DNA of 35,858 nucleotides from an uncultured bacterium (GTDB lineage: Bacteria; Krumholzibacteriota; Krumholzibacteriia; Krumholzibacteriales; Krumholzibacteriaceae), in NCBI GenBank assembly GCA_965371515.1, contig CBDUYR010000026.1, positions 1-35,858 of the forward strand, written 5' to 3'. How positions within the stretch are numbered: position 1 is the stretch's first letter; each line of letters opens with the position of its first letter. The notes below the pieces were generated by a model, which did not search any database, had not been told where the DNA came from, and worked only from the letters and a program-made list of their open reading frames with translations. Positions 30,616 to 35,855 of the stretch are shown here, piece after piece. A program made the position numbers and the translations under genes.

Positions 30616-31467
30616 ATGAAGAGACTGCCGATATACGTATTCGTGCTCGCGCTCATGGCCTTGTCGTGCGGCTCGATCAACAATTACCTCGATCCCGAGG
30701 GGCCGAGACTCGAAGGGGACTACACCTGCAGCGATCCTCAGGAGACCGCCCCCGACACGGTCAAGGTCATCTCCTACAACGTCAAGTTCGGCAAGAAGGT
30801 ATCCACGGCGATCGATGAGCTCAGGACGGTCCCCTACCTGAGACTTGCCGATATCATACTTCTCCAGGAGATGGACGGCGAGGGAGTCCGGATCATCGCC
30901 GACAGTCTCGACCTCGAATACGTCTACTACCCCGCGTCCGTTCACAAGGCTCACGGCAGGGACTTCGGAAACGCCGTCCTCTCGAGATGGCCGATCGAGA
31001 ATTTCAGAAAGATCATCCTTCCGCACTCGAAGCCTACCGACGACCAGAGGAGGATCGCCGTAGGCGCCACCGTCGTCGCGTGCAACCTGAGGATCAGGGT
31101 GTTCAGCGTCCACACAGAGACATTCTGGATGAACTATGACAAAAGGCTCGAGCAGGCCGACTCGCTCGTGCGCGCTGTCTCTAAGGACTACTCGCACATC
31201 ATCATCGCGGGGGATTTCAACACTCCCTTCGGGAGAAACGTGAAGGATATCGAAAAGTCTTTCGCCGCTCACGGATTCGTCAGAGCGAATTCGGGGGTGG
31301 GCTGGACGGCGAGGGTCCTGCCGTTCGGGCTGTGGAAGATGGAGCTGGATCATATCTTCACGAAAGGTTTCGAAGTGATCGCCGCGGGCAAGTTCGAGGA
31401 AGGGCAGGCAAGCGATCATGTCCCGCTCTGGACGATCCTGAGAACCCTACCCGTAGATTCGCTGTAG
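30616..31467 (+). CDS. Endonuclease/exonuclease/phosphatase (EEP) family lipoprotein
   Basis: Lipobox ALSC and the complete catalytic motif set SYNV, LLQE, GNAVLSRWP, SVH, AGDFN, LDHIF, SDHVP. Confidence 0.9.
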   Translation: MKRLPIYVFVLALMALSCGSINNYLDPEGPRLEGDYTCSDPQETAPDTVKVISYNVKFGKKVSTAIDELRTVPYLRLADIILLQEMDGEGVRIIADSLDLEYVYYPASVHKAHGRDFGNAVLSRWPIENFRKIILPHSKPTDDQRRIAVGATVVACNLRIRVFSVHTETFWMNYDKRLEQADSLVRAVSKDYSHIIIAGDFNTPFGRNVKDIEKSFAAHGFVRANSGVGWTARVLPFGLWKMELDHIFTKGFEVIAAGKFEEGQASDHVPLWTILRTLPVDSL

Positions 31468-31474
31468 AACGATC

Positions 31475-32776
31475 CTACCTGACTCTCTCCCTTTGCCGTT
31501 TGGCTTTTTCGCCCGTGGCGAGATGGAAGATCATCCACGGATCGCCGTCTCCGTATCCGAAATCGCACCTCACAAGGCCTACATAAGGGACTATGAGCCG
31601 GAACCCGGCTCCACCACCCCAGAGCATATTGGGGCTGAACTCAGCCCTCGTATTCCATGCGGAACCGAAGTCGGTGAATAAGGCGAGCTGCATCCCGATC
31701 GAGGCGGTGACCCCGAAGAATGCGAACGGCCTCGGCTGCATGAAGTTCCAGCGGTATTCGATCGTACTGATGAACTGGTTCTTGCCGATCTTCGTACCGA
31801 CGTCATAGCCCCGGATCGTATTGCTCCCCCCGAGGCCGTATGTCTGCCAGTCGGCCACCTCGGCGCCGACCTTTCCGCTTGTGGCAGTGTAGAGAGAGAA
31901 CAGGCCGAGGGTGTGGTCACGCCCCAGGGGATGGAAACGCCTCAGATCGAAGTTGCCCTGCAAGAAATCGCTGTCTGTGCTGAACAGTCCCGACTTGACG
32001 ACATCTATGCTGGACCACCAGCCCTCGTGCGGATTCGAATGGAAGTCCCTGCTGTCATACGCGACTATCAATCTCCCGTAGATGACGTGATCGATGTTGT
32101 CCGGGGTAAGGGTCTTCCCGTCGCGGTCGCTCTGGATCCCCTGATAGAACATCTGCGCTCCCACCCTGCCGTGTTCCCCGACGTAGCCCCTTCCCAGCAG
32201 ATAGGCCTCATTGGCGGTCTCGTGGAATCCGTGGATCACATTGTCCCTGTTGCGGTGATAGTATTCCGCGGTATATCCGATGTGGTTCCCCATCACCCAC
32301 GGATCGGTCAGTTCGAGCTCCACGGTGAGCTCCCCCCCGAACCTGGCGACCCCGGAGAAATAGATCGCCTGCCCGAGCAGGTTGACCGACTTGAACCCGC
32401 CGCCGATCGACAGGCCGTTCTCGTCGCTGATGGCAAGGCTTACGACAGGCATGTAGGCAAAGGTCTCCTTCACCTCGATAAAGACGACCAGGCCGCCGTC
32501 ATCGAGGGCGGTGTATATCTTTACTTCGCTGAAGATCTGCAGGCGGTCGAGCCGCTCGTAATCCGTCTTCTCGCTTTCCTTCGTGAACGGTTCGCCGACC
32601 TTCGTGGCAAGCTCGCGCTCGACGATGTACGGCTTCGTAGTCTTGAGGCCGATGATCCTGATGTCGTTCACGATCTGTCCGTAGACGTGGGAATCGTCCG
32701 CCTGGGCGATGAGTGATGAAGCAGAGCACAGCAGGATGAGAACCGCAGAAAGGTGCGCTACAGCCGATTTGCTCAA
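31475..32776 (-). CDS. Omp85 (BamA/TamA superfamily) protein with a single POTRA domain
   Basis: Signal peptide, POTRA (I.IIGLKTTK.YIVEREL..KVGE....DYERL.RLQIF...VKE), barrel with NLLG, YDSRD...PHEG, LGG.NTIRGY (loop 6), EYR, F.D.G.AW and G.GFR. Confidence 0.88.
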   Translation of the reverse strand: MSKSAVAHLSAVLILLCSASSLIAQADDSHVYGQIVNDIRIIGLKTTKPYIVERELATKVGEPFTKESEKTDYERLDRLQIFSEVKIYTALDDGGLVVFIEVKETFAYMPVVSLAISDENGLSIGGGFKSVNLLGQAIYFSGVARFGGELTVELELTDPWVMGNHIGYTAEYYHRNRDNVIHGFHETANEAYLLGRGYVGEHGRVGAQMFYQGIQSDRDGKTLTPDNIDHVIYGRLIVAYDSRDFHSNPHEGWWSSIDVVKSGLFSTDSDFLQGNFDLRRFHPLGRDHTLGLFSLYTATSGKVGAEVADWQTYGLGGSNTIRGYDVGTKIGKNQFISTIEYRWNFMQPRPFAFFGVTASIGMQLALFTDFGSAWNTRAEFSPNMLWGGGAGFRLIVPYVGLVRCDFGYGDGDPWMIFHLATGEKAKRQRERVR

Positions 32777-32792: not shown

Positions 32793-35700
32793 CTAAAGCG
32801 CCAGCTTGATGTACCTGCTGAATTTATACTTGAACCCCTTGTAGGGCGGCATCAGTTCGTCGAGAGTCTCCAGGTCATCGATCCAGGTCGACACGAGCAT
32901 CAGTTCCATCATGTCGAGAAAAGCAACCCCGGCCCTCAACCTGGAAGTGACAAGCAGGACCTCACCGTCCATGATCTTTCCCCGGTAGTCCTGGTTCTGT
33001 GAACCTACTGTGAGGAACATCGCGAGCCGCTCCTTGTCTTCGGCACTTATCGTCTCCACCCATTCCCGCACGAGTCGGCGGGTCCTGCGTGAAAGCTCTT
33101 CCCGGAGTTCCTTGACACTTATATATCTGTCCTCGTGAGCGGTCTGCTTTGCCCTGGCGATAATATAGTCCCTGAAGAGAGGGCCCCACCCTTCAAGGGG
33201 CATGAGGGTCCTGTTCACCGCTTCAGTGGAAAAGAACTGCGCCTTGAGGTGGATCTTCGGCTTCCTGGCGACGGCATCAGCGGTAAGATGGGTCGACCTG
33301 TATTCTTCCTCCCTCAGGATATCGATTGCTTCCTCCATATATCCCCTTACCGACTCGTGCGAGGGAAATACCTCGTCGATCCAGTCGTATTCATCCATAT
33401 GCCTGAGCATTGCCTCTGTACGTCCGATCTGGTCCTGGACGTCGCCATCGTAGTTGTACACGCCGACCCTGAACCGTCCTCCCACATACTCGAGTTCTTC
33501 ACTGAACTCGCTCTTCAGGAGGATAAACCGCGTGAAGAGCTCGTTCGCCCTTGCCATCTGCGGAAGGCCGTCGCTGGGCGCGTTGGCGAGCGAAGGCGCG
33601 ATGACATGGATCCTGCATCCCCTCATCGCCGAGCCGAAGAGCATCGATCCCCAGAATGTGCTGTTCCAGAGAGAATCGGGGATCAGCATGAACGAACCGG
33701 AGGGCATCAGGTTGTACAATACCCCCTTGACCACATTGTCCCATTTCTGTCCGAAACCGGTACGATTGTGAAGCTGCATGGAGGTTCCGGTCCATCCCTT
33801 CTCCACGAGCATTTCAACCTTTTCGTCATAATCATCGGGCTTCGCCAGGGGTCGAAGGGGCGCGGGGATCTCATCGTCCCTGAATCCCTGGGAGAGCAGA
33901 AGTAACCGTGCCTCCGTCTTCAGACCGAGGACGGCGGGGCCCCTGGCAAGGATCGCCCTGTCGTCCCACGTGGCGCCGGCGTAATGCTCACCCACACCCA
34001 TCCCCGTGAACATCCCCTCACCCCTGCCGGGATCGAGTTCGGTCAGGTCGTAAAAGCTTATCTTCCGGTGGTCCCTGAAAAGTATGTCTGGAACGAACCA
34101 GAGGTACTTGAACATGTTGGAGCTTCTGAACGAGAAATCGGCGGGATTGGTGATATTGATGTGTACCTTTACCAGATTCTTCAGCCACTTCTCGCCGTAC
34201 TCCTCGCAGCCCGCGCTCAGGGCCTCGGACGAATCGACGGCGGCCCGGAGCTCTGCCTGGAGGCTCAGTATGTTCTCTTCCCACTCCTCGAACCCCTTGG
34301 GAAGATCGATCTTCCTGTCGAGAGGATCCTCGAGGAATTCCAGCCAGAACCTCCCGTTTCCAGCCTCGAAGTAGAACTGGTCGAGCATGACCATGAAAAC
34401 GGGCATCTTTCCAGTCTGATCGTACTTGCGCACATTGTTGATGATCGCCTTGAGGTAACCGCCCGTCGACATCCTGTAACCGACCAGATCAGGATCGCCG
34501 AGATTGTTCGTCCCCCTGTAGTCGTGGATCCAGAGGACATGATAATCCTCAGCCACATGGATCATCCTGCCCAGCTCCCACTGGAACTGTTCGTTGATAA
34601 CGTAGTGGATGTCGTTTCCAGTTGTGAATTCCTTGCCGACCGCCCTCTCTACGATCGCGTTCAGCTCATCCTGCGTGTCGTGCTGGTCCGTATCAAACGC
34701 ATAGTGAAGTGGCAGCCAGACGAGCCTCGAATCCTGCCAGTCATCCTTGAGTTCCTCACGGTTCATCTCCACGATGTCGATCAGTTTTGCGAAAAGATAG
34801 TTCAATGCCTCGTACTCATCGGCATTGACAGAGATATCGGATTGTATCCCCTCAGCAAACTTCTTCTTCGCCTCGACGGCCAGACCGAGGATCGTCTCTT
34901 CCTTCTTCCTCTGCCCCAGCAGCCTGTTGTACGGGAAGAGTATCTCGTCGAGGAGCACTTCTCTCGCCAGATCGGCCGTCCTCGCACCGAGCTGCCTGTC
35001 GCCCCCTGATGCGAGCAGGAAGGCCCCTTCGAGGTGAATATGGTAAGCGTTCACAACCGCATTGAACGTGTATCCCTCCGGATGAAATTCGTCGGTCTTG
35101 TGGAAGGCCTCTTTAAACTCGATGACGCCGCCCGCGATCTTCTCGAGATCATCTTCTTTATCCAGGGAGAATTCCTCGTCGGAGAAGAAGGTCGTGTACG
35201 TCTGAATATGGAAAGCCGATTCCTCGAGTTGCGATATGACTGCATCAAGATCGCCGGAAGGCTCGAACTCCGGATCCTTGCTTTTACTCCTTCTCGGAAG
35301 TGTCACGTGAGCGTGCTTCGGCCGCGTCTTGCCCTTGTAAGGCTGTCCTATCGGCACGTTGAGCCCGAAATTAATTGTATTCCCGCGCCCGGGGAGCCAG
35401 TCTATCCGGATGTCCCCTCCGAGACCGAAGAGCCCTCCGCGCCTTATCGGGAACTGGAACGACCAGATGGAGCTCCAGTGGTCATCTGTGATCGAGTAGT
35501 CCGCTCCACCGGCGAACATGAAGAATTTCAGCGCCCCCATCGCTCTCAGGCCCGCGCGTGAATCGCCGCCCGCCTGACCGCCGTACGCCTCGAAAAAAGC
35601 TCCGAATATGCCCAGGTTCGGATTGAGGAGATCCCTGTATACAGAGAGGTTCAGCTCCATTCCATTCTGGTTTTCCGCCCCCGACTTGTCGAGGACATAT

Positions 35701-35855
35701 GTCACTCCCAGTCTCGGCATCCATTTTTTCGGGAAGCTCATCGACTTGACCATCTCGCCCTCAGCGGGAATCTTCACCGTCTCTGCAAACGAAAGACCGG
35801 TCAGGGCGGCAAGGACAAGGCTACCCGTTACTGCTGTAATGAATCGGGTTCGCAT
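32793..35855 (-). CDS. Large exported phospholipase D-superfamily protein with predicted N-terminal beta-barrel
   Basis: Signal peptide ending SFA, amphipathic beta strands at about aa 45-170, HRKISFYD (HxKxxxxD, H596), a second HLK (H869) and a distal GSQN (aa 951). Cardiolipin-synthase-like segments include AMRGCRIHVIAP. The ORF itself is solid; the function is inferred. Confidence 0.7.
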   Translation of the reverse strand: MRTRFITAVTGSLVLAALTGLSFAETVKIPAEGEMVKSMSFPKKWMPRLGVTYVLDKSGAENQNGMELNLSVYRDLLNPNLGIFGAFFEAYGGQAGGDSRAGLRAMGALKFFMFAGGADYSITDDHWSSIWSFQFPIRRGGLFGLGGDIRIDWLPGRGNTINFGLNVPIGQPYKGKTRPKHAHVTLPRRSKSKDPEFEPSGDLDAVISQLEESAFHIQTYTTFFSDEEFSLDKEDDLEKIAGGVIEFKEAFHKTDEFHPEGYTFNAVVNAYHIHLEGAFLLASGGDRQLGARTADLAREVLLDEILFPYNRLLGQRKKEETILGLAVEAKKKFAEGIQSDISVNADEYEALNYLFAKLIDIVEMNREELKDDWQDSRLVWLPLHYAFDTDQHDTQDELNAIVERAVGKEFTTGNDIHYVINEQFQWELGRMIHVAEDYHVLWIHDYRGTNNLGDPDLVGYRMSTGGYLKAIINNVRKYDQTGKMPVFMVMLDQFYFEAGNGRFWLEFLEDPLDRKIDLPKGFEEWEENILSLQAELRAAVDSSEALSAGCEEYGEKWLKNLVKVHINITNPADFSFRSSNMFKYLWFVPDILFRDHRKISFYDLTELDPGRGEGMFTGMGVGEHYAGATWDDRAILARGPAVLGLKTEARLLLLSQGFRDDEIPAPLRPLAKPDDYDEKVEMLVEKGWTGTSMQLHNRTGFGQKWDNVVKGVLYNLMPSGSFMLIPDSLWNSTFWGSMLFGSAMRGCRIHVIAPSLANAPSDGLPQMARANELFTRFILLKSEFSEELEYVGGRFRVGVYNYDGDVQDQIGRTEAMLRHMDEYDWIDEVFPSHESVRGYMEEAIDILREEEYRSTHLTADAVARKPKIHLKAQFFSTEAVNRTLMPLEGWGPLFRDYIIARAKQTAHEDRYISVKELREELSRRTRRLVREWVETISAEDKERLAMFLTVGSQNQDYRGKIMDGEVLLVTSRLRAGVAFLDMMELMLVSTWIDDLETLDELMPPYKGFKYKFSRYIKLAL

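Follow-up and report, generated by a model that had tools for sequence, protein, structure and literature searches.

A predicted outer-membrane barrel fused to a divergent phospholipase D domain in Krumholzibacteriota and other diderm phyla

Until ClsO was reported in 2026, the inner membrane was regarded as the only site of glycerophospholipid synthesis. ClsO from Acinetobacter baumannii is described as a surface lipoprotein of the outer membrane that acts as a cardiolipin synthase (Cls) and is most similar to ClsC (PMC12846801; commentary PMC12933096). In PlpD from Pseudomonas aeruginosa, a patatin phospholipase A1 is carried by a C-terminal 16-stranded Omp85 barrel, and its lipase domain is reported to lie in the periplasm (PMC11116518). 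Here, a gene for a 1020-residue protein is analyzed, which is predicted to combine a signal peptide, an eight-stranded barrel, a helical domain, and a two-lobed domain of the phospholipase D (PLD) superfamily. It was found in contig CBDUYR010000026.1 of the GenBank assembly GCA_965371515.1, from an uncultured bacterium of the family Krumholzibacteriaceae; the whole contig stretch of 35,858 nucleotides is referred to as the window. By analogy, the family appears most like the chemistry of ClsO placed on a tether of the PlpD type.

The protein would share with PlpD a periplasmic lipid-acting domain tethered to an outer-membrane barrel, which for PlpD is proposed to work on the inner leaflet (PMC11116518); the enzyme, the barrel, and their order are all different. 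A preliminary description of the window, made from the sequence alone, had listed the known bacterial PLD enzymes as inner-membrane, soluble, or type VI secretion effector proteins, a list outdated by the report of ClsO (PMC12846801). The full-text literature searched, largely without subscription papers or supplements such as the ClsO homologue list (Dataset S1), yielded no description of a barrel-PLD fusion. Neither the individual parts nor the concept of a lipid enzyme tethered by a barrel or placed at the outer membrane is new, while the architecture, the divergent active site, and the fusion to an EEP (exonuclease/endonuclease/phosphatase) domain appear not to be described in that literature.

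The gene and its N-terminal barrel

The start codon lies 3 nucleotides from the contig end. Close homologues are likewise 1020 residues long, and the ribosome-binding site AAGGAG directly precedes the same ATG in three relatives; the start is therefore regarded as correct and the gene as complete. The open reading frame (ORF) is not a chance one, because it has 559 homologues among 8000 scored candidates (the best 120 of them listed) and a family of 926 clusters at 50% identity (the best 150 listed), and because none of its five motif residues varies among 79 aligned sequences that are 25–46% identical. Promoter and terminator scans gave nothing useful.

The sole strongly hydrophobic 19-residue stretch of the protein falls at residues 3–31. 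From 191 full-length proteins, 39 without the anchor motif used and 8 with short starts were excluded, and 140 of the 144 assessable homologues carry such an N-terminal stretch by a crude hydropathy test (not SignalP); a lipobox-like pattern is present in 4. In the full-length model, with a predicted local distance difference test score (pLDDT) of 92.2 and a predicted template modelling score (pTM) of 0.91, eight strands at residues 45–168 are followed by helices at 201–406 and an alpha/beta region at 411–1020. The Sec signal peptide, the roughly eight N-terminal strands, and the long helical region of the preliminary description are all borne out by these results.

Folded alone, the barrel domain forms a closed eight-strand meander (pLDDT 83). 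Eight transmembrane barrels are matched at Z-scores of 13.7–14.6, including the designed transmembrane barrel 6x9z (14.6), PagL (14.3), OmpA (14.0), and OprF, NspA, and OmpW (13.9). The full-length model gives the same ranking for the barrel, and its strands align one-to-one with those of OmpA-type barrels. Sequence searches in PDB and Pfam revealed no match of the barrel to the known eight-stranded barrels OmpA, OprF, NspA, OmpW, or PagL.

Across all eight strands of the 79 sequences, one face is 78% hydrophobic and 3% charged, and the other is 29% charged and 19% Gly. The polar face is placed inside the barrel because the strongest couplings link it across strands, including non-adjacent ones: Y91-D119 (z 10.2), S132-D152, Y73-G85, Y91-G102, and R48-F87. 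Plain mutual information was too noisy for the coupling analysis. Two reports describe a Tyr lying over a Gly and bonded to an acidic residue as the motif that marks the core of transmembrane barrels, and Gly kinks directed at the core as typical of eight-stranded ones (10.1101/2020.10.22.346965; PMC5542473). The modelled barrel, polar inside and hydrophobic outside, is best read as transmembrane, and is predicted to reside in the outer membrane.

The family shares with OmpA, OprF, NspA, OmpW, and PagL the barrel fold, the strand order, and the inside/outside pattern, and with OmpA also a C-terminal domain after the barrel. It differs from them in its very short loops opposite the termini and in its appended part, an enzyme about 850 residues long. 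In PagL and PagP, enzyme activity resides in the barrel. In the family alignment, the loops at the opposite end are short and polar (median 7, 4, 4, and 6 residues), and the turns at the termini end are longer and conserved (median 8, 4, and 12 residues).

With an even number of strands, a barrel begins and ends on the same side. Immediately before strand 1 there is a conserved arm, and its residue F41 covaries with E509, F496, and E506 of the first PLD lobe (z 14.3, 13.6, and 7.0). Because F41 precedes strand 1 and covaries strongly with the catalytic lobe, the arm and the enzyme are placed on the same side. Established outer-membrane protein topology puts barrel termini in the periplasm, and by analogy an OmpA-like, periplasmic topology of the enzyme is likely. 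The preliminary description had proposed an outer-membrane PLD with the barrel first, either OmpA-like or inverse-autotransporter-like. The barrel of outer-membrane type and the OmpA-like layout agree with the models. The inverse autotransporter (type Ve), which has a 12-stranded N-terminal barrel with a linker in the lumen, is not supported, because the barrel here has eight strands, its lumen contains conserved Gly and charged residues, and its two termini share a side; the barrels of intimin and invasin match poorly (template modelling score 0.25–0.27).

The PLD domain and its active site

The best fold match of the PLD domain is the type I phosphatidylserine synthase PssA (8yr5, 3hsi; PMC11654701), with a Foldseek e-value of 1.6e-9 and a VIA Z-score of 21.7 (rmsd, root-mean-square deviation, 2.9 over 367 residues in both lobes, model residues 389–1020 against PssA residues 7–451). 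The divergent two-motif PLD suggested by the preliminary description is supported at the level of the predicted fold. Vaccinia F13, bacterial PLDs, and PLD3/4 follow at Z 17–21, with PLD3/4 at 19–20; because they score so close behind, the PLD fold cannot name the substrate. The alignments to PLD3/4 and F13 end at about residues 994–1006, and that to PssA reaches the last PssA residue. The helical domain between the barrel and the enzyme is barely covered by fold matches. From the superposition of both lobes and the cross-lobe couplings A637-L968, G459-S728, A770-D956, and F494-D956, we infer that H596 and H869 would meet in one active site.

The motif residues H596, K598, D603, H869, and K871 as well as G951 and N954 are present in all 79 sequences, E965 in 78, D632 in 77, and R958 in 76. 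The preliminary coordinates of both motifs proved exact. Position 876 is Ala, Gly, Val, Ile, or Ser and never mainly Asp, which leaves the second HxKxxxxD motif incomplete. The motif Asp is lost there through an insertion of about 70 helical residues, which the model places in the second-motif hairpin; the couplings S876-M946 and A879-R943 bracket this insertion. The remainder of the second half-site, G951-S-x-N954 ... D963-G-E965, follows the insertion and had been missed in the preliminary description. Its spacing is the same as in PssA, ClsA, ClsB, and ClsC.

In PssA, as described in the structural report (PMC11654701), the motif Asp residues are remote from the site, D169 and E385 orient the histidines, N374 binds phosphate, R167 binds the alpha-phosphate of CDP (cytidine diphosphate), and the terminal L451 enters the lipid site. 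Since PssA keeps its motif Asp residues away from the site, loss of the second one would be tolerable here. When equivalent residues are assigned by motif register, D632, E965, N954, and Y625 are the counterparts of PssA D169, E385, N374, and Y159, and W630 (79/79) occupies the register of R167. G620 replaces the first Asn of cardiolipin synthases, at which PssA has Ser. The protein ends in a basic amphipathic helix, and its final residue is Leu, Ile, Phe, Val, or Met in 75 of 79 sequences. The helix and the terminal hydrophobic residue suggest a lipid rather than a nucleic-acid substrate.

The top fold, the His/Lys pairs, the histidine-orienting Asp and Glu, the Asn, and the Tyr are thus common to the family and PssA, as are the D-x-E ending, the loss of the first Asn, and the basic C-terminal helix with a terminal Leu (PMC11654701). 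PssA differs in being a cytoplasmic peripheral enzyme that uses CDP-diacylglycerol, and there is no detectable sequence similarity. A type I PssA is not indicated: a signal peptide is present, and an invariant Trp stands in place of the CDP-binding Arg.

Among the four Escherichia coli lipid enzymes of the PLD fold, ClsC scored best in profile comparison, with its match around the first motif and the G-S-x-N segment; PssA, ClsB, and ClsA gave no significant profile match. The loop at residues 570–590, before the first motif, resembles the equivalent loop of ClsC. By sequence, the motifs are nearest, if weakly, to those of cardiolipin synthases. Two complete HxKxxxxD motifs and a match to a curated Cls or PLDc profile, which characterize Cls, are not found. 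ClsO and ClsC resemble the family in being exported two-motif PLD enzymes at the outer membrane (here a predicted location) with a patchy occurrence (PMC12846801). The family differs from them in its cleavable signal, integral barrel, helical domain of about 190 residues, and predicted periplasmic site, and also in lacking the second motif Asp and having Gly for the first Asn; ClsO enters this comparison by its published description, not its sequence. The lipoprotein signal and the absence of a barrel that mark ClsO are not seen in the family, in which lipobox-like patterns are rare (4/144) and profiles of both the barrel and the PLD domain, built from the 79 members, are matched by 181 of 181 stored homologues of at least 940 residues. 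Fusions to EEP carry a lipobox-like Cys.

Distribution and neighboring genes

The family is found in Krumholzibacteriota, Gemmatimonadota, and other diderm phyla. In GTDB, 359 of 414 candidate stretches encode a relative, and the best 80 of them come from Krumholzibacteriota, Gemmatimonadota, Eisenbacteria, Zixibacteria, Aminicenantes, Desulfobacterota, and others. Matches were found in 32 of 151 Krumholzibacteriota genomes, 30 of which are real after one trivial match and one remnant were dropped, and in 16 of 151 Gemmatimonadota genomes. No relative was recognized in the plasmids or viral contigs searched.

As the preliminary description had suspected of the architecture, the protein matches no characterized family. 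Among PDB sequences, no match was found for the protein or for the profiles of the family and of the barrel; Pfam gave none either, and PLD-type Pfam families were absent from the 44 members searched. NCBIfam gave no real match and no Cls match, its lone match (enoyl-CoA hydratase, E 0.006) being spurious. In ESM Atlas, the whole protein matches unnamed Gemmatimonadota clusters only.

The source genome is 99.6% complete and has LpxA. No tblastn match was found in it for ClsA, ClsB, ClsC, or PssA, and its one PLDc_2 match is an ORF which we take to be polyphosphate-kinase-like. The Cls profile TIGR04265 gave no match over the cut-off in any of 151 Krumholzibacteriota genomes, with 79 weak matches and none in the 27 genomes of the same family. 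The source genome also encodes four CDP-alcohol phosphatidyltransferases, one of which could be a cardiolipin synthase of the CDP type. A strict replacement of Cls by the barrel-PLD gene was considered and rejected, since 19 of the 27 family genomes have neither.

Two or three paralogues occur in several genomes, and in one locus two divergently oriented copies stand side by side (L052:4748-10832). The gene is split into two ORFs in L003, L004, L012, L021, L023, L032, and L050, probably by sequencing frameshifts. A search for free-standing barrels yielded 13 proteins of 81–296 residues, one a chimera with an unrelated domain; as independent proteins they were dismissed, since by eye they are truncated or frameshifted family members, in a search that covered barrels of this length and not longer fusions to other domains.

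An EEP-family gene for a predicted lipoprotein lies 1.3 kb from the PLD gene and is the only EEP gene of the genome (Table 1). Of 81 loci, which include related ones that are not independent and many on short contigs, 16 have an EEP gene no more than 1.6 kb away; these come from several phyla and differ in orientation, and the gene count of this genome would predict less than 1%. In three clusters (P0140, P0287, and P0288; 60–63% alike), the same EEP lipoprotein subfamily is fused N-terminally before the barrel. The subfamily is present in 16 of 30 carrier genomes and 26 of 121 others. The association is real but optional, and EEP is a likely functional partner of the PLD protein. A complex prediction for the PLD domain with EEP scored 0.00, gave no answer, and was used neither way. 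In E. coli, the ybhP-clsB-ybhN operon likewise joins a gene for a PLD-fold lipid enzyme to an EEP gene, and YbhP is 25% identical to the EEP of the window (E 3e-9). YbhP differs in beginning without a signal peptide, whereas the EEP associated with the family is a predicted lipoprotein and sometimes fused. YbhP is described as a protein without an assigned function (10.1101/2022.03.11.483950).

A scan of metagenomes with the EEP fusion found six EEP-like loci only, and one contig that lacks a PLD gene encodes, among outer-membrane genes, a pair of EEP lipoproteins belonging to this subfamily (L111:839-5930). In a relative of the same genus (G022, L090:3782-6592), a remnant of the PLD gene joins residues 83–127 to 989–1020, EEP is split, and the Omp85 gene is intact. 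Co-decay of PLD and EEP there was set aside as a specific link, since the DUF4136 and MetA-type neighbors are truncated too.

A co-oriented gene of the Omp85 family with a single POTRA domain lies 16 nucleotides downstream of the PLD gene. Such a gene is within 300 nucleotides in 15 of 81 loci and is not found within 6 kb in 65 (many on short contigs). A dedicated Omp85 translocon is unlikely, because the Omp85 gene survives intact in two relatives in which the PLD gene is deleted or missing (G022 and G006). BamA-like proteins with one to three POTRA domains are described as a known accessory class (PMC4104836). The 3.1-Mb source genome has eight Omp85-type matches, on C26, C73, C79, C2, C54, C105, and C72, with a profile built from the neighbors.

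Several loci (L005, L007, L008, L029, L031, L105, and L106) have a shuffled envelope cassette near the gene, with DUF4136 lipoproteins, a MetA-type channel, Omp85, EEP, and unannotated barrel-like proteins of 204 and 470 residues. The identification of the latter with FadL is not supported (E 0.12). An M1 peptidase protein of about 1000 residues, with a barrel-like C-terminus outside any Pfam family, is encoded convergently with the gene at 9 of 81 loci (L050-L054, L056, L060, L070, and L078). Profile comparison gave no support to its being an Omp85 fusion, and these 9 loci stand outside the Omp85 count. The genes at positions 668–28803 of the window are ordinary: ffh, rpe, a PASTA protein, fmt, tgt, queA, ruvB, yebC, EF-G, Yip1, a PDZ protein, glycosyltransferases, a peptidase, Wzz, tyrS, DUF123, and a PAS hybrid kinase.

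Table 1. Positions in the window of the barrel-PLD gene, its predicted parts, and two neighbors (aa, residues).
Feature	Position	Strand	Basis
Whole gene, 1020 aa	32793..35855	-	
Predicted cleavable Sec signal peptide, aa 1-24, no lipobox	35784..35855	-	sequence, hydropathy, family tally
Conserved N-terminal arm, aa 34-44, consensus S-M-G-x-P, predicted to dock on PLD lobe 1	35724..35756	-	conservation, covariation
Predicted 8-stranded transmembrane beta-barrel, aa 45-169	35349..35723	-	models, fold matches, face composition, couplings
All-helical domain, about aa 195-385	34701..35273	-	model
Two-lobed PLD-superfamily domain, aa 389-1020	32796..34691	-	Foldseek, VIA
Loop before first motif, aa 570-590, N-P-x-D-x-S-F-R then hydrophobic, predicted membrane-facing lid	34086..34148	-	hhalign with ClsC, E 0.026
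First motif H596-x-K598-x4-D603	34047..34070	-	79/79 each
Rest of first half-site, aa 617-632: G620 (Asn in Cls), Y625, W630, D632	33960..34007	-	
Second motif H869-x-K871, motif Asp absent	33243..33251	-	79/79 each
Helical insertion in second-motif hairpin, about aa 877-945	33021..33227	-	model
Rest of second half-site, G951-S-x-N954-x-D-x-R958 ... D963-G-E965	32961..33005	-	conservation
Basic amphipathic C-terminal helix with hydrophobic end residue, as in PssA, ClsA, and ClsC	32796..32834	-	
Single-POTRA Omp85-family gene, facultative neighbor	31475..32776	-	Pfam Omp85, POTRA
EEP-family predicted lipoprotein	30616..31467	+	Pfam PF03372

Proposed mechanism, alternatives, and significance

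It is moderately probable that the protein is anchored in the outer membrane, faces the periplasm, and acts on lipids by PLD chemistry. After Sec export, the barrel would insert into the outer membrane, as the signal peptide, fold, and residue patterning suggest. Both barrel termini would be periplasmic as in OmpA, and the helical and PLD domains would lie there, docked on the arm as the covariation indicates. By comparison with PssA and ClsC, the basic C-terminal helix and the loop at residues 570–590 may contact the inner leaflet of the outer membrane. One histidine, which would be H596 by analogy with PssA, may serve as the nucleophile on the lipid phosphorus, giving a phosphatidyl-histidine; the phosphate would be held by K598, K871, and N954, and the two histidines would be oriented by D632 and E965. 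Phosphatidyl-histidine chemistry is established for PLD enzymes. A second lipid or alcohol would then resolve the intermediate in a head-group swap, of which cardiolipin would be the most likely outcome; cardiolipin as the main product is proposed tentatively. From its adjacency and fusion, the EEP lipoprotein might work at this membrane face too, with phosphatidic acid, a phosphorylated head group, or another product or by-product of the reaction as its substrate.

Several observations weigh against this interpretation. The gene is accessory and patchily distributed, 19 of 27 genomes of its own family have neither the gene nor a Cls match, and at a threshold of E 1e-30 the EEP subfamily is absent from 14 of 30 carriers. 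The match to ClsC is weak (E 0.026, probability 1.9%), and Gly at 620 for the first-half Asn together with the PssA-like D963 indicates a pocket that is not canonical for Cls. PssA leads F13 by less than 1 Z in the fold comparison, in effect a tie, with PLD4 not far behind, and the fold matches included no Cls structure to compare. The strand registers behind the face composition were chosen by inspection. In the test of which barrel end contacts the enzyme, F41 dominates, and the remaining barrel-to-enzyme couplings are at noise level. Finally, the long, conserved, basic loops on the termini side reverse the usual pattern of short periplasmic turns; these turns may represent an enzyme-docking surface.

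The same location would also suit an enzyme that is mainly a hydrolase, turning outer-membrane or imported phospholipids into phosphatidic acid from which EEP removes phosphate, in a module for lipid turnover or phosphate scavenging. An EEP with intact catalytic residues is adjacent or fused, the patchy, accessory distribution fits, the neighbors are mostly outer-membrane channels and lipoproteins, and PlpD is reported as a periplasmic barrel-tethered lipase (PMC11116518). However, the motifs resemble those of synthases, nearly half of the carriers have no EEP of the subfamily, and the 470-residue neighbor is not supported as a fatty-acid channel; a hydrolase is seen as unlikely. For the barrel itself, a soluble lipid-binding domain on a free periplasmic or secreted PLD is brought up by designed soluble barrels, which score almost equally (Z 12–13), by YceI-type barrels (Z 10–11), and by strands 5 and 7, which are short in the model. 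The Gly-rich interior face with its charges and couplings, the other face being hydrophobic all round, and the nearest named ESM Atlas clusters, which are outer-membrane barrels (0.88–0.89, a lead only), make it very improbable.

The longer basic loops at the termini side could alternatively mean that the barrel is reversed or the enzyme exported, with the PLD domain on the cell surface, where ClsO is described to work (PMC12846801), and with help from the single-POTRA Omp85 protein that is close by in 15 of 81 loci. The one-to-one alignment of the strands with OmpA-type barrels, the need for about 850 residues and the N-terminal arm to cross, the persistence of Omp85 where the PLD gene is deleted or missing, and the 65 of 81 loci with no such gene within 6 kb render surface display quite improbable. 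A periplasmic phosphodiesterase or nuclease acting on DNA, RNA, nucleotides, or glycan phosphodiesters and paired with an EEP nuclease is held to be just as improbable: PLD3/4 score at Z 19–20, the EEP family includes nucleases, and the lost first-half Asn may enlarge the pocket, but the C-terminal helix, the terminal residue, and the D-x-R-S segment follow lipid enzymes, the tether would hold the enzyme at a membrane surface, and no nucleic-acid uptake genes are among the recurrent neighbors.

Should the improbable reversed barrel turn out to be true, it would constitute a new route of surface display for an enzyme of about 850 residues, with the single-POTRA Omp85 protein as the assembler, and a two-enzyme station for lipid remodelling (PLD and fused EEP) in phyla without a canonical cardiolipin synthase. 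The barrel is near the minimal size of designed barrels, and is of interest for outer-membrane protein folding. The family is invisible to Pfam, NCBIfam, and PDB sequence searches despite its hundreds of clusters, and can now be addressed with a confident model and named catalytic residues. The EEP fusion gives a way to approach what EEP genes such as ybhP do next to cardiolipin synthases. If the periplasm-facing, outer-membrane-anchored enzyme is true, the family would be a second, independent solution to placing lipid chemistry at the outer membrane, in which an integral barrel clamps a PLD-type enzyme to this membrane, probably at its inner leaflet, in phyla whose searched genomes yielded no canonical cardiolipin synthase.

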